Shown here: one piece after another, positions 34,305 to 49,510 of the stretch
Layout: every line of letters starts with the position of its first letter
Numbering within the stretch: the first letter of the stretch is position 1
Assembly (NCBI GenBank): GCA_965205505.1
Contig: CBDBHB010000008.1
Coordinates: 416,001-480,000 of the forward strand
Length of the DNA stretch: 64,000 bases
Direction of reading: 5' to 3'
Origin: Acidobacteriota bacterium
GTDB taxonomy: Bacteria; Acidobacteriota; UBA890; WLXD01
Notes under the pieces: generated by a model
What the model was told of the DNA's origin: nothing
Database searches by the model: none
What the model saw: the letters and a program-made list of their open reading frames with translations, nothing else
Program-made: the position numbers and the translations under genes

Positions 34305-35135
34305 TCAGAGGTTTAGGATTCGGTGTTCCGAAGCCTCCGGTTGCCAGCCCCTGGCGAACTCCGTAGGAGTTCGATCGTTCAGTGAGCTGTGTGGTCTGTG
34401 GGTATTGTAATCAAGCCTCCAAGCCTCCAGTTTTCGGCGCGCGTCATCGATCGAGAAGAACAGGTTGGCGTTGAGGCATTCGTCGCGAAGCCGTCCGTTG
34501 AAACTCTCGATGAACGCATTCTCCACGGGCTTTCCCGGCCGAATGAACTCCAACTGCACGCCTCTTCGGTACGCCCAGGAGTCCATCGCCTGGGAGTAGA
34601 ATTCTGAGCCATTGTCGACGGTGATGACCCGTGGCAACGGCCCGGCAAACGACAGCCGCTCGAGTGCTCCAGCCACCGCCTTGCCGGTCATCGACACGCC
34701 CGGCTCAAGTAACGGACATTCACGGCTAAACTGATCGACCACCGTCAGCACCCGAAACGGCCGGCCACTCTCGAGCCGATCGGTCACGAAGTCCATGCTC
34801 CAGCGCTCGTTGGGCCGCTCTGCGGGCGGCAGCACAAGCCGTATGTGACTCGCCCGCTTGCGCCGTCGCTTTTTGGTCCGTACCTCCAGCCCCTCCTCTC
34901 GATAGATCCGATACACGCGCTTCTGGTTCACTACCCATCCCTCGCGGCGTAGCAACACGCACAACCTCCGATACCCGAACCGCGGACGCGCCGCGGCGAG
35001 CTCGCCAAGACGACGCCGCAGCACGGGGTCGTCCGTCCTTGTGCTCTGATACCGATGGCTGGTGCGCGACAACTCGATCAGCCGACACGCTCGACGCTCA
35101 CTGACACGGAACCCGTCCTGCAGGTACCGCACCAC
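34305..35135 (-). CDS. IS3 transposase OrfB (DDE)
   Basis: 'WSMDFVTD', 'VDNGSEF', '[23 protein letters not shown]'. Confidence 0.95.
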
Positions 35136-35496: not shown

Positions 35497-38400
35497 TCAC
35501 AGGCATGTTGCATCCGGTGCGGGGACGCCATATTGGTCCAAGAGCACCGACCAGCCGCGCTCGCCTTCCGCGCCTGTCGATGCTGCCACCGGCACGACTT
35601 GTCCGCGCGCCACATCGATCAGCAATTGCTGTACCTGGTGGCTGGCACGGTCGATCAACTCGTGATCCGGCTGGTTGAAATAGGACAGTAGGCAACGGTA
35701 ACAACCCCGCACACAAGCCTCTTGTTCACGTTCCTCTAGAAGGTCGGGGTCGCCTGCATCAACGGCCTCTTCGACGTTGTCGAAATGCATCAGTTCGAGC
35801 GCTTGTTTCGCGACCCGGTTCAGTGCATCCGGATCCTCAATCAGACGGCTCAGCACGCCAGCGCCACCCTCAGCCGCCTCGTAGGCCAGGACAGCGCGCC
35901 GGTCATCCCTGCCGGGTAGCGGCTCGCCCAGGATTTCGCCTTCCTCCAGCTGGAACACCACCGTGATGCCCCGCATCAAGGCATGCTGGAGCGTGGCGAT
36001 TGTCTTTGGGTCAAAGCGATCGGGATCTTCGAACCGAAGCAGGAGGGCGTTCTTGCGATCCCGGACGATCGGGACGATCCGCACCGGCCGCACCGCATCC
36101 GGTGGGATCTCCACTTCCGGGTCTTCGTCCTCGCTCTTGGCCCAGTATCCGGTACGGGGATCGATCATGAATCCGAGTACCGTCTTGTCGCGGCGCCGCT
36201 TCAGCCCCTTGTTGATCCGACTGATCTGCGCGCTGTTGGCGTATTGCAGCCTGATCAGGGGCGCGTCCGCGACCTGGAACTCAGCCTCGATGACCTCGAC
36301 ACGGCCGTGCTTTCGCGGCCAGGCAAAAACCGTCTGAATCTCGAAGCCCTGACGAATGCGTTCCTCGTTATTGGCTGTTATCCGCTCGGCCGGCGCCGCC
36401 TCCACATTATTGATCCTGAGTGTGCGTTTGACCGGCAGCGCGTCAGCCATCGCCTCGTTGCAAGCGTGACAGCGTTCGACCTCGCCGTCGTGCGCTGCCC
36501 CGCAGTTCGGGCAGATGGTGATCTCCCGCGTCGCTAGTTCCTGACCGTCGTCGGTCCGGGTCTCGGGAGGTAGCTTCGCCTTGACGACCCGGAACGCACG
36601 CCCTTCGTGATAAATGAGGCTGCGAGGACCGAACTCGGAGATGGCGAGAAACCGGGCGCGCTGCAGGAAAGAACCGGACGTACCCTCACCGGGAACGAAG
36701 GCGTATAGGGGCAGCCGCGGGAAATTGTAGCCGGGTAGAAAACCTTCCGTCGCCAGGTAACGGTACGAGTAAAAGTCCGATCCGTTGGTTGCACGGCCTT
36801 GTTCAAGAAGGGCGATCTGATCCGTGGCCCGCATCTGCGCGGCCTTGATCTTGCGCCGATCGGCTCCCGACAGCCCCGGTACTTGTGACTGGCTGTTGGC
36901 CTCGATCAGTTGTGTGCGGGCGGAGTGATAGAGTTCACGCCATCGGTCGAAGGCCCTGTCGAATTCCTCCGGCGACTGGGTGGCAACCTCCCTCACATAC
37001 TCGTCCGGATCCGCCATCCAGCCAGGTTTGCGACCGTCCAGCGACGCAAGAATTTGCTCCAGGACACGGCGCAGTGGTCCGCATGCCTTGTCGACCAGAC
37101 CGGGAGCCTGGATAACCTCGAGGATCTCGTCTTTCAGGGGGTATCCGTTCTTCTGTAGGTCGAGGATCTCGGGAATGTCGGCAGACAGGGGTAACTGCGC
37201 CGAGGCAAGCCAGATCGCCTGCAGATGAGAAGCGACCAGGTTCTTGTTGGTGATCTCGAGTGCCGGCGGGCGTACCACACCGGCCACCATGTCGATGCGC
37301 CGATCGAAGAAATACTGATCATGCGGCGACTGGGCCGCACAGTACGTGAAGATGACCGCGGCCTGCCCTGACCGCCCCGCACGTCCAGCTCGTTGCGCGT
37401 AGTTCGCAGGCGTCGGCGGCACATTGCGAAGATAAATCGCATTCAGCGCCGAGATGTCGACCCCTAGCTCCATCGTGGGCGTGCAGAACAGGGCCGGCAA
37501 TAGGTGTGCCGACTCGCCGCCGGCCTTGATTTCCGTCTCGCACTCGGCAATCCGCGCTTGATCGTCGGCTTCGAAGCGGAAGCGCCATTCCCGCCATTCC
37601 CGCTGCCTCTGGGTCACCTGGGCCGTATGCTCGCGGCTCTCTATCCCGAACAACGAACTGGTCCTCACCCCGTCCAGATCGGCCGCAATCCGCGTATACA
37701 GGTCGTGAAAGTAACGGTTCCCTACAGCGGCTTGCTCTCGAGCGGCCGGTCCTGGAATGAGTCGGACAGCCGAGGGCGATAGACACCACCCTGGAAAATC
37801 GCCCTCACTCGAAGCCAGCGTCACAAGCCCTTCATCGGCCAGAATGGCAAGGAGTTCGGAGACAAAGACGAGGTAGTCGCCCCTCCCGAGCTTCGTGCCG
37901 ATGACGCTCTCGCGGTTAAGCAGGCGCGCTATGCGTGACTGCGGGCCCGCGCGAAGGACCAGCTGTTCTTCACGCAGACTCGTGACTCTCTTGCCGGGGG
38001 CCTTCAGAAACAGGGTTGTACGCCCTCGCGGTCTTTCCTTGCTGTCGATCGCCCACGGAACCTGCAGGAGCGACCGTGATCTCTGTGCAACGGTGTCCAG
38101 AACGGCAAGATCGAGTGCCTCGGTACCGACGGCCAAGCCTTCGAGCATGGCCCCTAGCAGGATCCGGAGGACCTTTCTGCGAGCATCATGATCCAGGGAT
38201 CCGAGCTCAGGCAGAATGGCTGGGAACCTGTTTCCGTCCGCGGCCACGTCGCCGAGTCCCACGAAATCCACTTCGATCAACTTCAACCTCGACAGGCTCG
38301 GATTCGTGAAACGCCAACCCCGACGCAAATCGGTCCAGACCCGGTGCGCGAGCACCTTGGCCAACGACCGCTCTGCATCGCTGCGAACCACCGCCCCGGC

Positions 38401-40497
38401 CTCGGGGTTCAGCATCCAGTGCATCCGCAGCGCTGCGTTCGAGCCGACAAAACCCAAGGCCCGTTGAACACGGAAGCCGAACTCCTCTTCCCGCAGGCCT
38501 TCCTCGCCAGCGTCGACAACGGCGCGCAGCATTGCTCCGCGCAGCAGGCTCACGAACACAAAATCGTTGAAATGCCCCGCTTGAAGTGCAGCGTCCTGGC
38601 GATTGTCCGTGAAGCCAAGGAGTTTGCGCTTCTCCTGTGCAACGGCATGGGCAGGCTCGTTCAGCCATTCAAGAGCGCTCGATACGAGAAGCGTCGTCGC
38701 TGAGCTCCGACCTTCAGCGGTCAGGCCCGCAAGCTTGCTGCGCTCGCGCATGGCCGCTTGTGGCTCATCGAGACAGCAGGTGCAGAAGGCGAATTTGCCC
38801 GGAATGAACCAGAATGGCTCACCGTCTTCGGCAGCACGGCCGCTGCCCGCGACCGTCACCATCTTCGGCACACGGCTCTTGCGGTACGACCGGAGCTTGG
38901 GCTGGCCGTTGCTTTCTTGTGTCCAGCCTTCCGGAAACTTCTCGAGCTCCCCATCGAAGCGGTAGTCCGGATCACCAACTCCGGATGGCGTTAGGTACCC
39001 GGCGACGTCGGTTTCGTCGTCGCTGCCGATCGGGGTGTCGTCGATATTGCGCGGCACGAACAACGGGCGATCCTCGTGCTGCCTTCTCGTCACCACGTAG
39101 TACTCCTGACCGCAACGGCGGCAGAAGCGAATCGGATACAGCCGGGTCCCCGGAGAGTCGGGATCCTCGAGTTGTCCCTCCAGCAGAACGGTTCGCGGCT
39201 TCAACCGCAATGTTGCGAAAATGTCGCCCGCTCCTGCGATGAAGCGGTGCAGCTTGAAGGCCAGGAACGATTGGTCGCCGGTACCGCCTCGGTCCTTGTC
39301 AGGAAGGCTGACGCGGGTCAGGAAGCTCTCCAACACGGCACCACAGCGCTCTGGGTCGATACCGCTCGCCTGCGCCAGCGATTCGGTGGCCTCGCCAAAG
39401 GGCATCGGCCGTCGGCGCTTCAGGATCTGCGCGTCTTCCAGACCGAGCTCGAGCTCCGCCCAGACCGCAAGCGGGTGGGTGAACAGCTCGTCATCGGTCA
39501 GCCGCTCGGGAACGTCCCCCTCGAGCACGCCCGCAAGCTTCGGGGCAACATCCGCGAGTGCGAGGCGATCGTCCGTGGCCCGGCGCAGGGACTCATCGAT
39601 CACCGCATCCGGGCCGATCGGGACTCCGAACAGACGTGAAGCCACTTCCGAGACCGCCAAGGCCCTGCTGCCATCGCTTCCTTCGCTGGCCATCGTCGCT
39701 GAGGTCCCGATACAGATCGGAGCCTTGTCGGGCGTGCAGCGGTCACGCATACGCCGAACCAGAATGGCGACATCAGCACCTTGGCGGCCACGATATGTAT
39801 GCAGTTCGTCCAGGACGATGAACTCAAGGCCGTTGGCGTTCGCGATGACTTGAGAATCGACGGGAGCCTGCCGGGTCAGCAACAGCTCGGCCATCATGAA
39901 GTTGGTCAGCAGAACATCCGGCGGATGATCCGCGATCCACTGCCTTTCCTCCTGACCCTCCTGCCCGGTGTATCGCCGTACCACCGGCTTGAGGTTGTCC
40001 GGAAGGCCTGACTGATCAACGAATTTCTCGATTTCCTTCACCTGGCTGTTAGCCAAGGCGTTCATCGGATACACGATGATCGCGCGTGTCCTCGGCGCAT
40101 GCCCGGCCTTCCGCGCCCGGATGATCGCGTCCACGATCGGCACAAAGAAGCAAAGGGACTTCCCCGATCCAGTCCCCGTCGTCACAACGTAACTGTGTCC
40201 GGCGCACGCTTTGGCGATCGCCTGTCCCTGATGCTTGTGAAGCGTGATCGGCCTCGACCCAAACCGGAAGATCTGGGCCGTCTCCGGGCAAATGTCGCCG
40301 GAATCGACGAGATCGTCGGTCGTTGGTCCCGCTTCGTAATGAGGGTTCAGGGAAAGGAGGACATCCGGCCAGAAACGGCCCTCCTCATACTCGCGTGCAA
40401 TCGCCTCACGCAGGTCGGCTGCCCGAATCGTGCTGAAAGACCGCGAGAATGAAGCGTAGCTATTGACGATGTGGTGATCGAATTCGAAGGCTTTCAT
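35497..40497 (-). CDS. Large YprA-like DEAD/DEAH helicase with DUF1998 (anti-phage defence type); C-terminus clipped by IS3
   Basis: 'TGTGSGKS', 'YPMNALANSQ', 'DELH', 'SAT', 'TPTMELGVDI', 'QRAGRAGR', 'CVRGCYRCLLSYFNQ'; stop codon supplied by the IS IR. Confidence 0.92.
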   Translation of the reverse strand: MKAFEFDHHIVNSYASFSRSFSTIRAADLREAIAREYEEGRFWPDVLLSLNPHYEAGPTTDDLVDSGDICPETAQIFRFGSRPITLHKHQGQAIAKACAGHSYVVTTGTGSGKSLCFFVPIVDAIIRARKAGHAPRTRAIIVYPMNALANSQVKEIEKFVDQSGLPDNLKPVVRRYTGQEGQEERQWIADHPPDVLLTNFMMAELLLTRQAPVDSQVIANANGLEFIVLDELHTYRGRQGADVAILVRRMRDRCTPDKAPICIGTSATMASEGSDGSRALAVSEVASRLFGVPIGPDAVIDESLRRATDDRLALADVAPKLAGVLEGDVPERLTDDELFTHPLAVWAELELGLEDAQILKRRRPMPFGEATESLAQASGIDPERCGAVLESFLTRVSLPDKDRGGTGDQSFLAFKLHRFIAGAGDIFATLRLKPRTVLLEGQLEDPDSPGTRLYPIRFCRRCGQEYYVVTRRQHEDRPLFVPRNIDDTPIGSDDETDVAGYLTPSGVGDPDYRFDGELEKFPEGWTQESNGQPKLRSYRKSRVPKMVTVAGSGRAAEDGEPFWFIPGKFAFCTCCLDEPQAAMRERSKLAGLTAEGRSSATTLLVSSALEWLNEPAHAVAQEKRKLLGFTDNRQDAALQAGHFNDFVFVSLLRGAMLRAVVDAGEEGLREEEFGFRVQRALGFVGSNAALRMHWMLNPEAGAVVRSDAERSLAKVLAHRVWTDLRRGWRFTNPSLSRLKLIEVDFVGLGDVAADGNRFPAILPELGSLDHDARRKVLRILLGAMLEGLAVGTEALDLAVLDTVAQRSRSLLQVPWAIDSKERPRGRTTLFLKAPGKRVTSLREEQLVLRAGPQSRIARLLNRESVIGTKLGRGDYLVFVSELLAILADEGLVTLASSEGDFPGWCLSPSAVRLIPGPAAREQAAVGNRYFHDLYTRIAADLDGVRTSSLFGIESREHTAQVTQRQREWREWRFRFEADDQARIAECETEIKAGGESAHLLPALFCTPTMELGVDISALNAIYLRNVPPTPANYAQRAGRAGRSGQAAVIFTYCAAQSPHDQYFFDRRIDMVAGVVRPPALEITNKNLVASHLQAIWLASAQLPLSADIPEILDLQKNGYPLKDEILEVIQAPGLVDKACGPLRRVLEQILASLDGRKPGWMADPDEYVREVATQSPEEFDRAFDRWRELYHSARTQLIEANSQSQVPGLSGADRRKIKAAQMRATDQIALLEQGRATNGSDFYSYRYLATEGFLPGYNFPRLPLYAFVPGEGTSGSFLQRARFLAISEFGPRSLIYHEGRAFRVVKAKLPPETRTDDGQELATREITICPNCGAAHDGEVERCHACNEAMADALPVKRTLRINNVEAAPAERITANNEERIRQGFEIQTVFAWPRKHGRVEVIEAEFQVADAPLIRLQYANSAQISRINKGLKRRRDKTVLGFMIDPRTGYWAKSEDEDPEVEIPPDAVRPVRIVPIVRDRKNALLLRFEDPDRFDPKTIATLQHALMRGITVVFQLEEGEILGEPLPGRDDRRAVLAYEAAEGGAGVLSRLIEDPDALNRVAKQALELMHFDNVEEAVDAGDPDLLEEREQEACVRGCYRCLLSYFNQPDHELIDRASHQVQQLLIDVARGQVVPVAASTGAEGERGWSVLLDQYGVPAPDATCL

Positions 40498-41070: not shown

Positions 41071-41277
41071 GGCGGCTTCCAGTGAACGCAGCTAACCTGG
41101 AATCAGGCCCCCCGAGAGCCACCACGATTCTCTTCCCCTTCCGGGGAACCTCGAACTATTTCTCGGATACTTCGGTTTTCATGGCCACGCTTCCGAGTTT
41201 GGCCAAGGAGGAGGTCAGTCAAGTCGTGGAGCTCGCGTGACGTGTTGAGAAGGGTCTTCGAAGAGGGTAGGAAGTGG

Positions 41278-43462
41278 ATGCGCCGCCTATTGTGCCGCCT
41301 GCTCTTCCGAGGGACCTCTCACAGTGAGGGCAATGAGGGCGGGACAGAGCCCGACGAGCCCCCAGTACCGTCGACGAAGCTCGACAGTCCATCGGCGACA
41401 TCGCATACAGCACCGCCGGAAAGCCCACACGGAAGGCGAGCTGCGCCTTCTCGTCCCCACGCGGCGATGGCGGATCCACTGACGGCAAGGGCGATACCGA
41501 CGGGCGTGATCCCGAAGACCGATGGCGGGATCTCGGCTCCCTCGAAGGGGCGGAAGAAAGTCGAGGAGCCAGAGCCTCGACCTCCCCGACGTATTCCAGG
41601 AAGACGAGACGGACCGACGCAGACTAGAACCGCAACTAAGAACGGGAGCGGAGGAAATCGTGTAGGACGTCCAACGTCCAAGCCCCGTCCGGAGCTGATC
41701 TGCCGCAGACCTTCGGGTTCAGTGCAATGGGAAGTACTGCTCTCCGCAGATGAAGAATCCCGAATTGCACTAGTGAAGCAGAACGGCGAGCCGCTCAGCC
41801 TGGGGGACGGGGGGGTGGTCTCTCACGTCGTTCGACGGTCGCCTGTCCATCGACTTCGAGCAAGGCCCATCGATCCACGTCTCGCTGTTCGACAAGAGCC
41901 CACTGATCTTCAAGCTGAACAAAGCTTGGACCGGGGATGGCCGAAACATCACCCACCTGACGAAGGGCCACTTCATCGTGATCGCGCCGGTGGAGTGGGT
42001 CCGTTCGGGCCATGTGCCCGTTGAACCGGATTGCTGCTCTGACTCGGCGTTCATGGCGCACTATTTCTTCCAGGGCGGCAGTGAGTCCACGGAAGAGCCC
42101 GGCGGCTTTTCGGGGCATGAGATCGACTCAAGCGCACCCGGATTCAAGTTGAGCGGAAAGCGCGTCTTCGACGATTCCGAGGAGGGTGACCTGTTCGTGG
42201 GAACTCCTCCGCAACTGAGTGATACGGACCGAGTGGTTTGGGCGCGGGTCGGAGAGGAAAGAGCACACGGCTGGAAGGGCCATAACTTCAAACCGTCCGA
42301 GCGCACCCTTGCCGAAGTCATGAATGCTCGGCAGGGTCGCTTCTTCGTTCGCGTTTACGATGAGCAAGGGGCAATGCTGGATGGTGCCCAGTTCCGATAC
42401 CTGCGCGGTCTCCGAGAGATTCGGGTGAACGGAGAGCCTTACGCCGAAGACACGCTGCTCGTGCCGAGCGCGACAGGCCATCCGCCGACAAGGGTGCGGT
42501 TCATCGGCGCCGATGGCTTACCTTTGCACGCCGCCTTGCCGCCAGGCGCAATGCCTATGGAGGACGGGACGGGTACTCTGATCGCCGAGCCGCACCCCGA
42601 CGCGGACGAGATTTCGTGTGCGCTGGAAGCCGATGGCGGCCGCGTGGAAATCGCTTTGCATTTGCCGCGCATCTGGTGGCGGATGGAGCGAGAAGGCGCC
42701 GAATGGGATGGCGAGTGGTGCAGCACACCGTTCAAGATGACGCGCCATGATTTCCGTGACCACGCCGACTCGAACGCGATACTGCGGTTGCGATCACCGA
42801 AGCGAATCAGGTCGGTTGTCGTGGGCTTCGGTGACGAGCCGTGCCTCAAGTACACGAGGAGGGACGATGAGTTCGTATTGCCTCTAGCCCACTTCGTCGA
42901 TCATGTCCAGGTCGACCATCGCCTGACCGAGGATGCCCTGTTCAACGTCCGATTTGATCAGGCCAACGACCGACGCGATCAGAGGCTGCTGACCTTGATC
43001 CGGATTCCCGCCGACCCGCCACCGGCAATTGTGTCGCTCACCTGTGAACCCGGGGCCCTCGCCGCCGGAGAGAAGTCGCTACTGTCTTGGGTGACCCGCA
43101 ATACTGACGATGTCCACGTCGTGATCGATCCCGACATCGGTGCGGTTGCGCCTACCGGAAGCCGTGAGATCGCACCCTTGGAGACAACGACCTACACGCT
43201 GCGGCTCACCGCGCCCGGGATGGAAGGCGTCACAAGGCGCGTCACCGTGCGAGTGTCACGCATGCAGCCAAGAAAGGTCCTCGCCAAGGTTCTGCGAGGG
43301 GGCGGCGGCTGGCGACGCGGCAGGGGCTTTAGCTGCGGAGAGTTGCGCACAGTCGACTTGACCGCGACTGAGGCGGCGCGGAGGTCGATCAGCATCGACA
43401 GACGTCGACGCAGCGTGCATCCGGCCAACATCAAGACCCTTCGGAAAGTGGCCCATGGCTGA
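41278..43462 (+). CDS. Helicase-partner protein (~728 aa once the frameshift near 41810 is corrected): beta-rich core, Ig-like domain, C-terminal eL13-like domain
   Basis: ORFs 41242-42024 and 41978-43462 join at a G homopolymer; 'PAIVSL...SLLSW...TTTYTLRLT'; 'GRGFSCGELR...ISIDRRRRSVHPANIKTL'. Confidence 0.8.
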
Positions 43463-46400
43463 CGTGCACGACATGGGCTCGTGGCCCGAAAGAATTCGCC
43501 AACGCTACGAGAGCTATCTGAAGACCTCGTTCTTCTTCAAGGATCCCGGCCTTCGCGCCTCGTTCCAGACCGCTCTGCAAGAGGAAGAAAGTCTGCTGAA
43601 GGGCAACTATCCGGAACCGGCTCGGCGCTTCCGCACGGGATTGAACGCGCGGGCGCTGGCGCGGGGGTGCTTTCCCGAGACCGCCACCGACCTGCTTCCA
43701 GCGCTGATCGACGCTCCGCTGTATGTGCACCAGGAACGAGCCGTCCGAGCCGTCCATCAGAAGCAGCGCAACATCGTGGTCGCCAGCAGCACCGCGAGCG
43801 GCAAGACCGAGAGTTTCCTGTACCCGATCCTGTTCGAGCTGTATCGCCAGCATCTAGCTGGCCAACTGCGCCAGCCTGGAGTCCGGGCCATGATCCTGTA
43901 CCCGATGAACGCGCTCGCCAACGACCAACGCGACCGTCTGGGCAACATCGGCCGGGATCTACACGAGGCGGGGTCGGGCTTCCGGCCCACTTTCGGGCAG
44001 TACATCGGCCAGACACCCCAGAACAGCCGAGACCGGTGGCGCAATACCGATTGGTGGGCCGAGAACCGCCTTCCGGGCGAAATGATCTTCCGCGACGAGA
44101 TGCGCGAGGCTCCGCCCCACATTCTGCTCACCAACTACTCGATGTTGGAGTACCTGCTCATCCGCCCTGACGACAGCCCACTGTTTGACAATGGCCGGGG
44201 CGAGCGCTGGCAGTTCATCGTGCTCGACGAAGCGCACCAGTACCGGGGTGCCAAGGGCATGGAGATGGGCATGCTGATCCGGCGTCTTAAGCAGCGGCTA
44301 CGCGACGGGGGTCGGCGGGATCCATTTCGCTGCATCGCCACGAGCGCGACTCTCTCCTCAGGCAAGAGCGAAGCCGACAGACACGCGGTCGTCGAGTTCG
44401 CCAACGAGCTCTTCGGGGAGTCCTTTTCGGCGCCCAGCATCGTCTTCAGCGAGTCGCAAGAAGCGGCGGCCGACGGGCCTCCGCGCCGATACCACGCCTT
44501 TCTGCGCGCTCTCGAGGGGGCGTTTCTAGTGCACAGAGACGGCACGGACGCTGTGGTGCTGAACCGTAAGGGCCAAGCCGGGGATGGCACCGCCGCAGAG
44601 CCGTTGGAAATCGCCTTGTGCAAGGAGTGCGGCCAGCACTATTACGTCGGTCGAAATCAGGGTGGCATGCTCCAGGAGGCCATTCGCGATCCCAGCCACT
44701 CGGACTTCGGCGTGGACTACTACCTGCCAACTGAGGATGGGGACCAACTTCTGTGTCGGCGTTGCGGTGCGCTGTCGGGCTCGACGCCGGCATGCGAATG
44801 CGGAGCGACGGTTCGCGTTAGACGGTGTGAGAACCACAAGGACCACGCCGATCAAATGAAGCGGTGCGAGGCGTGCCAGTATCGGCGCGGCGGCATCGGC
44901 GACCCGGTGCAGGAGATCGTGCACGGCTCCGACGGACCGAACGCTGTTATCGCAACCGCCCTGCACCAACTGCTCCCGGAGGGCCGGCGCAAGGTGCTGG
45001 CATTCGCTGACAGCCGCCAGGAGGCGGCGTTCTTCGCCTGGTATGCGGAGAATTCGTACGAGAAACTGCGCGACCGAAACCTCATATTGCGGGCGATCAA
45101 GGCGGGGCCGGTCGACTGTGGGGGGCTGTCCATCAGCGATCTCCAGAGCCGTTTGCTCGTCCAGTGGGAACGCGCCGGCCTGTTCAAGGCATCCGACACC
45201 GGCGAGAGCAGGAACCGGAAGGTGCTGACCGCCATTCTGCGGGAGGCGGTGACGGACGAAAGGAGGTTGTCCTTGAGCGGCGTCGGCCTCGTGAAGTGGT
45301 TCGTTGCCAGACCGGATTCGTTGCGTTTGCCGCAATCCATGCGACACTCGCCCTGGAGTTTCCAGGAGGAAGAGGCGCGCCGCCTGATCGGCTACCTGCT
45401 GGACGAGTTGCGCCCGCGCCGAGCCATGAATCTGCCGCCACGACCGTCGCTTGCATGGTCCGACGTATCGCTTTGGCCACAGCAGGCGTACTGCAAGGGA
45501 CCGCCGGGTAGGCGGCGGAGCGTTCTGCAATGGGGCGGTCCTCAGTCCGCAGTCGTCAGCCATTTCCTGCACCGGTTGCTCGCGGACTCCGGCTTGTCAG
45601 CGGAACAGAAGCGGTTGGAATCAACCGGGCTCATGGACGAGGTGTGGGAAGCGTTGCGGCATGATCGGGACCATCCAGTTCTCTCCCGCGGAACAGCGAA
45701 CGGAACGTTTCGGATCAATCCGGCTTGGCTGCGCATCAAGCCCGCCGGTCCCGGAGCAGTCTGGGAATGCGGCACATGCGCAACCTTGAGTAACTGCAAC
45801 ATCCGCGGTGTCTGTCCCCGCAATGGTTGCCCCGGCGACCTGACGCCCGCCAACCAAGAGCGTCTCCAGGAGAATCACTATCGGATTCTCTACGACGCCT
45901 TGGACCTTCCCCCGGCGCTGAGCGCGGAAGAGCATACCGCCCAGATTGACAGCGACGAGGCGCGCCGACGGCAGGACCGGTTCAAGAAGGGCAAGATCCA
46001 CCTGCTCAGCTCGTCGACGACGTTCGAGGTCGGCGTCGATCTCGGCGATCTCGATGCGGGGTTTCTGCGCAACGTGCCGCCGGAACCCTTCAACTACACG
46101 CAACGCGTGGGGCGGGCGGGGCGAGCGGCCACGCCAGGCCTGGCTCTGACGTACTGCCGCCGAAATCCCCATGACCTGTATCACTACGAAGATCCGGAAC
46201 ATCGGCTAATCCGTGGCGCGGTGCACCCGCCGCGCCTGCGGTTGACGAACCAGAAGATCGTCTTGCGGCACATGGTGGCCACTGCCCTGTCCGCCTTCTT
46301 CAGATCCGGCAGCAACGCCATGCGATTCAACCGTGTACAGGACTTGGTTGGGGACTGGCATAGCCCACGCGCAACGCTGGACCTGAGGGCGTTCTGCGAG

Positions 46401-46727
46401 AACAACAGCACATTGGCAGCGTCACTGCGCGAGATCGTTCCCGATCTCCTGCACAAGAGCACCGGACTCGCAGCGGACGCATGGACCGAGCAGGTTGCGG
46501 GGTCCGACAGTCGGCTTGCTGCCGTGGAGATTGAAGTGTGCTCGGACTATGTCGACATGGAGCGTAACCGGCAGGATCTGTTCGACCGACGCAAGGGCAC
46601 GGACAGAGTGGAAGACCGCATGAAGACCATTGCCCGCGAGCAGACGCTTAATTTCTTGTCCCGCAAGGCGGTCATCCCGAAGTACGGGTTCCCCGTGGAT
46701 GTCGTCGAACTCGATACTCGTCCCCGG
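43455..46727 (+). pseudogene. YprA/DruE-like DEAD/DEAH helicase truncated before DUF1998 (ORF runs on to 46994 in foreign sequence)
   Basis: 'STASGKTESF', 'YPMNALANDQ', 'LLTNYSMLEYLL', 'DEAHQY', 'STTFEVGVDLGDL', 'QRVGRAGR', 'IPKYGFPVDVVEL'. Confidence 0.88.
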
Positions 46728-47168
46728 GACGTCGTAAACCAGCCGATTGGCGTCGCCGAAGAAGTCGTTGGCCGTGAGCACCTGGGCGGCCGCGTTCAGC
46801 GCCTCGTTGTCGAGCAACACCGCGCCCAGGATCGAGCGCTCCACCTCGACGTTGTGCGGCAGCGCGCGCTCCTCGTGCCGTGTCCGGACTTGACGCAGCC
46901 GCCCCACTACGCGACCTCGCCTCGGTCGCCGACACGGGCGACGGTACCGTTTGAGTCCGTTGGGCTGTCGAATGTCCAGACCCCGGCCCCCTAGGGCCTC
47001 CAGAACCGCCTCCTGCGTGCATCCGGCGTGACAGTGCACCAGCACCTGCCCGTCGCGCTCTGTCGCGCTCAGGCTCGGGTTGCGGTCCTCGTGCGCCGGG
47101 CAGGGGTCCATGCCAGGTCCATTGGATCGACCCTCGAGCGGGCGGACGATCTGCTCCAGGCTGGCCAC
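46728..47168 (-). pseudogene. Satellite replication gene fragment: CHC2 primase Zn finger plus DnaB N-terminal domain
   Basis: 'CPAHEDRNPSLS...LVHCHAGC'; 'LPHNVEVERSILGAVLLDN...LTANDFF..ANRLVY'. Confidence 0.78.
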
Positions 47169-47169
47169 G

Positions 47170-47394
47170 TCACGTTGACTGCTGGGGAGGGGCAGGTTGA
47201 TCGCCCCCCGGCAGGGCGGTCGGACGGCTCGCTAACCACGCCTCGATGTCCGCCATCCGCCAGGCTACGGCACGGCGGCCGATGCGCACCGGACGGGGAA
47301 ACTCCCCCGCATCCATCGCAGCGTAGATCGCTGACCTGGAAAGTAGCGTGATCCGCTCGACTTCAGGACGCTTGATGAGGACTTGCTGCTCCAT
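47170..47394 (-). CDS. alpA: AlpA-family phage regulator
   Basis: 'LIKRPEVERITLLSRSAIYAAMDAGEFPRPVRIGRRAVAWRMADIEAW'; AGGAGG RBS. Confidence 0.92.
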   Translation of the reverse strand: MEQQVLIKRPEVERITLLSRSAIYAAMDAGEFPRPVRIGRRAVAWRMADIEAWLASRPTALPGGDQPAPPQQST

Positions 47395-47508
47395 GAGGAA
47401 CCTCCTTGGTTTTGGTGGTTCCTCCCACTGTGCAGGGGTACCTCTGGCCTGTCATGAGGTGCGAGTTTCCGAAAACTCGCCCCCACGGCCCGGGGGTGGC
47501 GCAGCCGA

Positions 47509-48168
47509 CTACCGTTTACCCTGCCATATGTCGCGCATGGTGTCGTACGTGCTCACACTGTGATTTCTCTCCTTGAGCACCCCGAGCACGATGTCGCAGG
47601 CGGACGGACGCTCCATCGCGTCGGTAGCCTCATTGCGCTCCGCATGCATGCCACACTCTGTCAGGACGTGGATCGCCCATCGGAGCACGTTATTTCGCTC
47701 GGCCATCTTGGGGGCCGGCCCCTGGCTGCCTTTGCCGCCTTTCGGAGGCGCACGCCGGCCATGCATCACGTCGCCCACCCAACGGTGCAGGGCTTGCCCG
47801 AGTGGACGTTTGCCTTCGGTGCGCGCGAACGTCCACGCCAGTGCGTCCCAATGTACGGGGTTAGTACGTGATCCTTCGGTAGTGGATTCGATATCCTCGC
47901 GCGGGGTGTTGTCTTCGCCCCGAAGAAACAACGCAGCGTACATCCATACGTTGTAGTTGTGGGCGATCTCTGGGTTTCTCCACGACGGGTCCAGGTCGAG
48001 CCACAAGCCCACGAGAGCGCGCGCATCGTCGTTGGAAATGCGCTCTTTCTGCTCAATGAATCGTGTCCGGTGCTTATGGTGCAGCTTGGCGAACTCATCG
48101 TTCCGGGATTTGTCCAGGACGGCACGCACAGGCAACACTGGTTGCCTCGCGCGCTCTTTTTCACCCAT
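47509..48168 (-). CDS. Hypothetical protein between integrase and alpA
   Basis: Open frame in the variable slot of P4-like elements; no recognised motif. Confidence 0.55.
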   Translation of the reverse strand: MGEKERARQPVLPVRAVLDKSRNDEFAKLHHKHRTRFIEQKERISNDDARALVGLWLDLDPSWRNPEIAHNYNVWMYAALFLRGEDNTPREDIESTTEGSRTNPVHWDALAWTFARTEGKRPLGQALHRWVGDVMHGRRAPPKGGKGSQGPAPKMAERNNVLRWAIHVLTECGMHAERNEATDAMERPSACDIVLGVLKERNHSVSTYDTMRDIWQGKR

Positions 48169-48472
48169 GAGGCAGCACCGGCACGATGGTCTGGATCGGG
48201 GCGGGCAACCTGGAGTGCGGCCCGGGCCCACTGATCGATGGGGACAGCAGCATCAGGCCCAGGATGACGGCCGGAATCAGCGTCAGTGCACGGCCCGAAA
48301 GGTTGATCCTGGGCGAGCGGAGATCGCCCATCCGCACGTTGCCGAGCTCACCTCTGTCCATATCATCTCTCCGTAGGCACGGGGGCGGTGGGGTAGACAC
48401 GTCTTCAGGGTAGCGTGCGTGGCCGTGTGCCAACCCACTTCAGCAGGCAGGGAACCGACCCGGTACTGCTCC

Positions 48473-49510
48473 CTAGACAGGGCGCAGCATCGGCACCACC
48501 TTGCCGCCCTCAGCACTCAGGTAAGCGGCCCAGTCTTCCATCAGCTTCCGGCGCCGCTCCAGCAGGTCCGAGCGCGCATAGGCCGCCTCGGTCGGGTCGC
48601 GCACCGCATGCGCCAGCGCCGCCTCCATGACCGCCCGCGGTGCGTTGGTGCACTCCGCCGCCCAGTCCCGGAACGATGAGCGAAACCCGTGCGGTACCGC
48701 TTCAATACCCAGCTGCCGCAGCACCCGGGAAAGCGTTGCGTCCGCCAGCGGCCTGCCGGCCCGTGCGCCGGGAAACACCAGCCCCTCGCCATCCCTGAGC
48801 CCCCGCGCCTGGCGCAGGATCTCCATTGCCCGGCCCGATAGCGGTACCCGGCGCCGCTTGCGGTGCCGTGGCAGCGCCTGGGTGATCGCCTCACCAGCCG
48901 GGTTGTCGCCACGGTACCCCTGCGCCATGGCCCACTTCATCACCGCACCGATGCGCGCCCGCACCCGCCGTGCGGTCTCGGCCTTGTCATGCCAGATCGG
49001 ACCCAGTACCTCCAACACCTCGGCCGTCGTCACCTCCGACACCGGCATCTCACCGATGCGCCCGTACGCATAGGTGCGCAACTCCGTTTTCCATTGCGCC
49101 GCATACTTGGCGTTGCGCCACCCGGGGCGGTGCATCTCATACACCTTGGCCGCTGCTTGCGCGAACGTCGGCATGCCCTCGGCCCGGCGCTTGTCTGTCA
49201 GCGGGTCACCGCCGGCACGGGCCAGCTTGCGGTTGGCAAATGCCACCTCGCGCGCCTCCGACAGCGACACCAAGGGGTAGCCTCCGAGACCCAGTTCCCG
49301 GCGACGGCCCTGGATCACGATCCGCTGTACCCAGCTGCGCGCTCCGCTCGGGATCACGTTCAGGTACAGGCCGTGTCCATCGCAGTACCGGCCCGGCTTC
49401 ATTACCGTGCGTACGAACGCCGCCGACAGGGCCCGCTCCGGGTGCTTGCCGCTCTTGCGCCGAGGGCTGGGTTTCGGTGCAGTTGCCTGCGCATCGGACA
49501 TATTATGCAT
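48473..49510 (-). CDS. P4-like (IntA) tyrosine integrase with an in-frame internal deletion
   Basis: Arm-binding 'GRYCDGHGLYL...RRELGLGGYP.VSL', 'PHGFRSSFRDWAAE', 'ALAH...AAYARSDL'; segment with the first catalytic Arg missing at 'HRKR|RRVPLS'. Confidence 0.9.
   Translation of the reverse strand: MHNMSDAQATAPKPSPRRKSGKHPERALSAAFVRTVMKPGRYCDGHGLYLNVIPSGARSWVQRIVIQGRRRELGLGGYPLVSLSEAREVAFANRKLARAGGDPLTDKRRAEGMPTFAQAAAKVYEMHRPGWRNAKYAAQWKTELRTYAYGRIGEMPVSEVTTAEVLEVLGPIWHDKAETARRVRARIGAVMKWAMAQGYRGDNPAGEAITQALPRHRKRRRVPLSGRAMEILRQARGLRDGEGLVFPGARAGRPLADATLSRVLRQLGIEAVPHGFRSSFRDWAAECTNAPRAVMEAALAHAVRDPTEAAYARSDLLERRRKLMEDWAAYLSAEGGKVVPMLRPV

Follow-up and report, generated by a model that had tools for sequence, protein, structure and literature searches.

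An archaeal-type eL13-like domain at the C-terminus of a bacterial protein encoded beside a DruE/YprA-type helicase

The DNA stretch considered here, called the window throughout, comprises 64,000 nucleotides from an Acidobacteriota bacterium (assembly GCA_965205505.1, contig CBDBHB010000008.1, positions 416,001 to 480,000 of the forward strand). It holds a gene of about 730 codons on the plus strand (41278..43462), which we call the carrier gene, and its product ends in a tail of 63 amino acids (aa) (43271..43459, plus strand) that matches the core of ribosomal protein eL13 by profile, by comparison with the Protein Data Bank (PDB) and by fold model. Directly behind it (43455..46731, plus strand) comes a compact helicase gene of the DruE/YprA type, present as its 5' part, which covers aa 1 to about 1092 of some 1400 aa. 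The carrier stop and the helicase start overlap by 8 nt (ATGGCTGA), and the two genes are probably co-transcribed with translational coupling. The protein eL13 is universal in eukaryotes and present in many archaea, and we know of no bacterial ribosome that contains it.

The carrier gene is read in frame +1 as far as a run of G residues and in frame +2 afterwards. P0004, a protein of 711 aa with 83% identity, is its closest full-length homologue and aligns by tblastn in frame +1 at 41314-41814 and in frame +2 at 41804-43459, and because of this two-frame alignment the gene is placed at about 41278-43462 with a +1 frameshift, its start at 41278 being taken from the alignment with the N-terminus of P0004. 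The encoded protein consists of a disordered N-terminal region, tandem immunoglobulin (Ig)-like beta-sandwich domains and the eL13-like tail. An AlphaFold model of a 494-aa part, with a mean predicted local distance difference test score (pLDDT) of 84, is a chain of beta-sandwich domains followed by the tail, and its fold matches in the PDB are generic multi-Ig chains (contactin, titin, GhpA, complement), with nothing specific among them. Scans of the carrier with PADLOC and NCBIfam models returned nothing besides L13e, and an ESM Atlas search with the body of P0004 (residues 140-650) led to unnamed clusters, with a best score of 0.81.

An earlier note on this DNA, made from the sequence alone, had proposed that an eL13 motif of the short archaeal form stands at the C-terminus of a bacterial accessory protein, and had named a Pfam profile search, structural superposition on eL13, a phylogeny with archaeal eL13 and the ends of homologous partners as the places where this should be visible. 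Translation of 43271-43462 on the plus strand gives RKVLAKVLRGGGGWRRGRGFSCGELRTVDLTATEAARRSISIDRRRRSVHPANIKTLRKVAHG and then a stop, so that the 494-aa open reading frame (ORF) 41978..43462 indeed ends in the quoted motif, at about 43313-43450, with the core W-R-x-G-[KR]-G-F-S...E-L...I-x-I-D-x-R-R-R-S-x-H-x-x-N. The motif at the protein end is borne out by profiles and structures alike. The tail alone matches Pfam PF01294 (Ribosomal_L13e) significantly over profile positions 63-97 of 180 (E 3.8e-6; 27.3 bits, where the cut-off is 24.9). It matches NCBIfam NF008914 ('50S ribosomal protein L13e'), an 83-position model of the archaeal short form, with E 1.7e-14 and 53.2 bits over positions 28-74, which is nearly the whole globular core; as this score falls short of the equivalog cut-off of 96, the tail is not a full-length, free-standing L13e. 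With phmmer, the best PDB match of the tail is the eL13 of 9e6q (chain AH; E 2.2e-9), and dozens of eukaryotic eL13 chains follow at E values of about 0.01-0.6. A profile built from 32 tails finds the same chain with E 9.7e-15 and, among the chains listed, eukaryotic eL13 at about 7e-10 to 6e-6. The accessible part of its report describes PDB 9E6Q as the 50S subunit of Pyrobaculum calidifontis (10.1101/2024.11.12.623245).

The predicted structure agrees with the profiles. The AlphaFold model of the tail (pLDDT 92) has two short strands and three helices, and in a Foldseek search against the PDB the best 50 matches are all eL13 chains, with template modelling (TM) scores of 0.61-0.82. The best of these is 9e6q_AH (E 4.9e-5, TM 0.79, root-mean-square deviation 2.7 A, 40% identity), and the eL13 of a yeast pre-60S particle superposes with TM 0.82; an E value of 0.001 or lower is reached by just three of the eL13 matches, as expected for a domain this short. 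Scored in the other direction, against the tail profile, archaeal L13e proteins of 55-180 aa reach 70-79 bits, almost the scores of the carrier family itself, the Pyrobaculum eL13 reaches 57 and eukaryotic eL13 chains about 29-41, which agrees with the short archaeal form named in the earlier note.

A rival reading would see in the tail a basic, low-complexity stretch that merely resembles eL13, by chance or by convergence. It can draw on the complete 494-aa ORF, which scores only 22.8 bits with PF01294, slightly below the cut-off, and on the sub-motif GFSxxELxxAG[LF]T, which also matches the repeats of DotG/IcmE. Three independent profile libraries and the fold search indicate eL13 only, and named archaeal L13e proteins attain their high scores with the bacterial tail profile across the whole core. 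The chance reading, which has next to no probability left, is effectively refuted by the tail profile against the PDB, the archaeal L13e scores and the fold matches. The tail is a genuine homologue, at the domain level, of the eL13 core of the short archaeal type. With the archaeal short eL13 it has the motif, the spacing and the predicted fold in common; it differs in being the C-terminal domain of a bacterial protein instead of a free-standing ribosomal protein, and in having no Lys-rich C-terminal extension as the archaeal proteins do. The resemblance of the sub-motif to the short repeats of DotG/IcmE, in which single repeats are each insignificant, remains a caveat on the match.

The tail is conserved among the relatives of the carrier. 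A word-based search scored 8000 candidates and gave 246 homologues at E <= 0.001, 120 of which were listed; 101 of these 120 have both strict tail motifs, and the spacing between the motifs is 26 residues in 89 of the 101. Twelve of the 19 homologues that miss the strict motifs are one-residue variants by eye, and seven have other or out-of-frame ends. Seven positions (G19, S21, E24, D43, R45, R46 and H50) are invariant across 32 aligned tails, whose mean net charge is +7.6 per 63 residues, and the basic residues that the tail keeps are precisely the ones conserved in eL13 on the ribosome. Within 55 loci of the carrier family, taken from one-genome-per-species contigs, the tail hidden Markov model (HMM) matches the carrier-family gene in 38; 31 of them had served as seeds of the HMM and seven had not (L013, L015, L023, L038, L056, L058 and L059).

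Eight homologues have their two motifs 91-92 residues apart, because an extra domain of about 66 residues splits the eL13 core in the middle. This insertion is beta-rich and lies between the GFS...E helix and the I-x-I-D-R-R-R-R-S segment in L013 and L015, and it is found in the core of P0009, P0010, P0024, P0026, P0037 and P0061 as well. Two further homologues, P0033 and P0038, end in a small domain like the insertion and have no eL13 part.

Beyond the family, the tail profile was run against 1.84 billion representative proteins and matched 1295 at E <= 0.001, with 466 at E <= 1e-10, a number that includes archaeal L13e and fragments. The 150 matches listed hold 135 further proteins, 90 with the carrier-family body and 45 without. 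The body-less group divides into 27 short proteins (55-180 aa), 16 proteins of a second bacterial architecture and two DotG-like repeat proteins. The short proteins match close to their N-terminus and have Lys-rich ends, and of eight such clusters looked up, five bear the name L13e in their sources, including one from Bathyarchaeota. Four of the short proteins, presumably archaeal L13e (P0239, P0244, P0253 and P0255), show by eye an additional C-terminal region like a helix-hairpin-helix.

The second bacterial architecture (the P0167-P0238 group, 300-480 aa) opens with a short, basic motif at the N-terminus, continues with long acidic repeats (EEYGLxLE) and ends in the eL13-like tail. One of its members, P0174 (342 aa), bears the NCBI name 'ribosomal protein L13e [Rhodospirillaceae bacterium]', comes from a metagenome-assembled genome (MAG) and matches NF008914 with E 5.1e-14. 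Proteins of this type share with the carrier the tail at the C-terminus, but they lack the Ig-like body and have the basic motif and acidic repeats in its stead. A search for the acidic-repeat architecture in five carrier-family genomes found only the family's own tails.

A FastTree phylogeny of 71 tails drew on the family (the first 35 of its 90 rows), the acidic-repeat group (15 rows) and the short proteins (21 rows); 7 of 133 rows had been removed beforehand for 12 or more gaps, and the tree was midpoint-rooted. The bacterial tails form one clade (support 0.80) and the short archaeal L13e proteins form another (0.97), with the acidic-repeat group (1.0) nested within the carrier-family tails. 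The tree has 63 columns, takes in the best-scoring archaeal sequences only and has neither eukaryotic rows nor an outgroup, and this speaks against leaning on it heavily; it is consistent with a single acquisition from archaea. The direction from archaea to bacteria would follow mainly from the established distribution of eL13 in eukaryotes and archaea. We infer that the globular core of an archaeal eL13 was domesticated to give the tail, with a putative archaeal donor.

The window helicase matches the PADLOC models DruE3 (1.1e-115) and DruE1 (6e-111) and the Pfam domains DEAD and Helicase_C, with no MZB domain, and with residues 1-1092 of the 1400-aa helicase of locus L013 it shares 85% identity; its ORF extends beyond the homology as far as 46994. 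A homologue of this helicase lies directly downstream of the carrier gene on the same strand in 50 of the 55 loci, and by a coordinate filter its ORF measures 1387-1466 aa in 36 of the 55. The genes outside the pair vary among the 12 loci viewed. The bacterial accessory protein of the earlier note is thus confirmed as one tightly paired with a Druantia-type (DruE/YprA) helicase. An intact orthologue, the 1404-aa helicase of locus L010, matches DruE1 (6.5e-160) and DruE3 (5.9e-150), and at E <= 0.001 its Pfam matches are just DEAD, Helicase_C and MZB, with no nuclease domain.

The family is scattered. In the order to which the bacterium belongs, it was found in none of the 25 other genomes searched, including the four of the same genus, and only in the genome of the window (1 of 26), because of which the carrier-helicase pair is regarded as behaving like a mobile accessory cassette. 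According to their record titles, the hosts of the family belong to Acidobacteriota lineages, Gemmatimonadota, Latescibacterota, Poribacteria, Dehalococcoidia/SAR202, Binatia, Rhodothermales, Alpha- and Gammaproteobacteria and Spirochaetia, and almost all of these are MAGs. Several host lineages, such as Poribacteria and 'Spongiihabitans', are ones that we take to be typical symbionts of marine invertebrates. The wide spread over phyla, mostly as uncultured MAGs, points to an active exchange of the cassette inside certain microbial communities.

In the carrier family, several modules are interchangeable, the eL13 tail among them. The carrier of L043 (8762-11731) ends in a complete bacterial uS17 domain (residues 895-962; Pfam 2.7e-27, 95.1 bits; NCBIfam 101.3 bits against a cut-off of 74), which has an OB fold and is 53% identical to the S17 of its own genome. 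The carrier of L025 ends in the omega subunit of RNA polymerase in place of the tail (Pfam 6.5e-8, NCBIfam 3.2e-11), and this module is the complete rpoZ ORF of the host, fused in frame via its 5' leader (L025:11307-11617; L155:1489-1799). The two copies differ at 7 of 311 bp, which is about 98% DNA identity; four of the differences are coding and all four are synonymous, and the proteins are 100% identical. A full NusB domain is present in P0013 (1.4e-20), where it occupies residues 518-641 immediately ahead of the tail, and in P0119 (8.7e-20). Regions 2, 3 and 4 of sigma-70 lie in a long N-terminal extension of L056 and L058, which are continuous ORFs of about 1400 aa; three relatives are counted with sigma-70 regions. 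The end of L055 has a weak, sub-threshold match to Zn_ribbon_IS1595 (E 0.0071; 16.7 bits, where the cut-off is 25.4), and other family ends are Lys/Arg-rich tails (by eye), small beta-rich domains or helix-rich domains without a Pfam name. The modules in the place of the tail or beside it are mostly nucleic-acid binders, uS17 and NusB among them. These interchangeable modules, like the carrier start near 41278 with its frameshift and the truncated partner helicase, go beyond what the earlier note had seen. As separate observations, the sigma-70 stretch of L058 also matches the PADLOC model of MzaA (4.1e-63), and L059 resembles L056 and L058 in length.

The pair resembles Druantia type III in being a two-gene operon with the accessory gene first (50 of 55 loci) and in its DruE/YprA helicase, which combines DEAD, Helicase_C and MZB (DUF1998) in orthologous loci (L010). 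It is close to subtype III-B in the compact size of the helicase (about 1400 aa) and in the absence of a nuclease domain from the Pfam matches of L010; the DruE of this subtype is described, in the accessible parts of two reports, as compact and mostly without a nuclease domain (10.64898/2026.05.13.724758; 10.1101/2025.09.15.676423). The accessory protein of E. coli Druantia III, DruH, has 1119 aa and consists, according to the available text of one report, of Ig-like subdomains and a C-terminal domain, with single-stranded DNA (ssDNA) bound where the fifth Ig-like subdomain meets the C-terminal domain (10.64898/2026.05.12.722862). Another report, as far as its text is accessible, calls DruH a likely infection sensor (10.64898/2026.05.12.724681). 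The carrier shares with DruH the Ig-like array, the small C-terminal module and the position in the operon; it differs from DruH in being shorter (about 700-930 aa against 1119 aa) and in bearing an eL13-like or other swappable module.

By sequence the carrier is not DruH, yet it is built like DruH. The PADLOC DruH models matched none of the four carriers scanned (E up to 0.01 or 1), whereas ten of them match E. coli DruH as a control, and hhalign gave the family alignment a probability of 0.1% against E. coli DruH. The comparators were the PADLOC models and E. coli DruH. Because these DruH comparisons were negative, the pair is regarded as Druantia III-like with a new partner family, and not as a member of type III.

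From these components a mechanism may be proposed. An accessory protein resembling DruH, composed of a disordered N-terminus, an Ig-like array and a small module, would have received a copy of the eL13 core at its C-terminus, and the carrier and its compact DruE/YprA helicase would be an anti-phage cassette of two genes, similar to Druantia type III and passed on horizontally. The strongly basic tail would bind nucleic acid, either ssDNA or RNA, that the helicase exposes on, or produces from, the invading DNA, and its role would parallel the ssDNA binding of E. coli DruH at the interface that the last Ig-like subdomain forms with the C-terminal domain. On balance we consider it somewhat more probable than not that the tail is the module for nucleic-acid binding or targeting in a sensor or clamp acting together with the helicase. 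The tail is read in this manner because most of the swap modules bind RNA or DNA, because the basic residues of eL13 are retained and because DruH is reported, in the accessible part of its description, to bind ssDNA with its C-terminal part.

Several observations weigh against this proposal. The support for a role in defence comes from helicase homology and gene order, and the carrier is not recognised as DruH by sequence. The acidic-repeat proteins with the same tail had no neighbouring helicase in any of the five metagenome loci viewed (L071-L075); the second architecture stands without an adjacent helicase and therefore the tail does not need DruE. Omega is not a nucleic-acid binder, so that generic nucleic-acid binding does not cover every module, and the presence of omega in one relative and of sigma-70 in three is a poor fit to a purely generic binder. 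Finally, the copy in the window is broken and is therefore uninformative on activity.

The same modules keep a second explanation alive, because all those with a name come from the machinery of gene expression. The end slots of the carrier, C-terminal and in some cases N-terminal, would hold copies of this machinery that anchor the sensor on RNA polymerase, ribosomes or nascent RNA, or that serve as bait for phage proteins attacking the machinery; engagement of the bait would set the helicase to work. Every named accessory domain belongs to transcription or translation (eL13, uS17, NusB, omega, sigma-70 regions 2-4), and the omega of L025 is the host's whole rpoZ ORF with an identical protein and none but synonymous coding differences. 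The commonest module, eL13, fits poorly, because bacteria have no eL13 and the module can neither mimic a host protein nor find its native site; the uS17 module is just 53% identical to the S17 of its genome; and the omega fusion is a single recent event, maybe a functionless accident, in which four synonymous changes are few. Docking or bait is possible, but we regard it as rather doubtful. It is unlikely, though worth stating, that the carrier is a modular immune sensor in which machinery copies act as docking devices or integrated decoys and report phage interference with transcription or translation to the DruE-type helicase. If this were true, bacteria would have in such a sensor an equivalent of the integrated decoys found in the immune receptors of plants.

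A third explanation would make the tail a protein-protein interface that contacts the helicase or keeps the carrier inactive, without binding nucleic acid. The translational coupling of the two genes is in its favor, as is the title of a study in M. smegmatis, according to which type III Druantia defence depends on the interaction of DruH and DruE (PMC13316683). The accessible text on the E. coli system, on the other hand, reports no direct DruH-DruE interaction during purification (10.64898/2026.05.12.722862). The conserved residues of the tail are the basic ones conserved in rRNA-bound eL13, and the identical tail type is found in proteins that have no helicase as a neighbour. We therefore hold an interface of this kind to be quite improbable, and a nucleic-acid-binding tail is still the reading that we prefer.

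The finding is of interest in several respects. We see here a clear example of how a domain from the archaeal and eukaryotic set of ribosomal proteins persists in bacteria, where it is widespread, in a function away from the ribosome. DruE-type helicases gain a previously undescribed partner family, just as the part that DruH plays is beginning to be understood, and the swappable modules (eL13, uS17, NusB, omega and sigma-70) represent a natural experiment on what a Druantia-like accessory protein recognises. The domain itself has already been flagged in databases, through precomputed PF01294 matches and one NCBI name. We found no published description of an eL13/L13e domain in connection with Druantia or bacterial anti-phage systems. 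The accessible main text of a survey of the YprA family contains none of the terms L13, ribosomal, immunoglobulin, Ig-like or DruH, and its supplementary tables may list this branch (10.1101/2025.09.15.676423).

In this genome the cassette is inactivated, dead or dying, with its carrier frameshifted and its helicase split. The +1 frameshift falls in a run of seven G residues (41809..41815, plus strand). A contig from sequencing run X1, possibly the source sample of the window, equals 41200-43579 without any difference, and the run of seven G residues is reproduced in contigs of run X2 as well; a contig of run X5, from a related organism, has one G fewer at 41809 and an intact frame. Because run X1 reproduces the run and the relative in X5 has one G fewer, the frameshift is taken as a property of the data of this strain and not as a trait of the family.

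The helicase is in two pieces. Its 3' fragment (aa 877-1400, with MZB) lies on another contig, at 7933-9506 of L152 (G000:C9:1266000-1284000), directly after a gene for a 441-aa integrase, and the first 651 bp of this fragment are 100% identical to 46081..46731 (plus strand) of the window. The two pieces are not contiguous in the assembly, and the contigs of the sequencing runs break at the 651-bp repeat. A split with such an overlap is the pattern expected from the single-crossover insertion of an element that carries an internal gene fragment.

Remnants of a mobile element abut the break on the minus strand (46422..49510), with NCBIfam matches for a DnaB fragment and an integrase. They comprise a fragment of the DnaB N-terminus (46422-47168, by NCBIfam), a 74-aa ORF (47170-47394) without an NCBIfam match, which we read by eye as presumably an AlpA-like regulator, a 240-aa ORF, and an ORF with an integrase domain (48473-49510, by NCBIfam), all on the minus strand. 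A search for tRNA genes at the island borders found none between 30000 and 52000. Outside about 34-49.5 kb, the scanned ORFs with Pfam matches are ordinary metabolic, transport, hydrolase and outer-membrane genes, and two of the nine scanned had no match.

A second DruE/YprA-like helicase, of 1666 aa and with MZB, is encoded on the minus strand at 35497..40497 and is unrelated to the first. It stands outside the conserved pair, as in the related loci it matches the downstream helicase gene only, and weakly. An 89-aa ORF lies upstream of this second helicase, and an IS3 transposase gene lies downstream of it (34305-35135).

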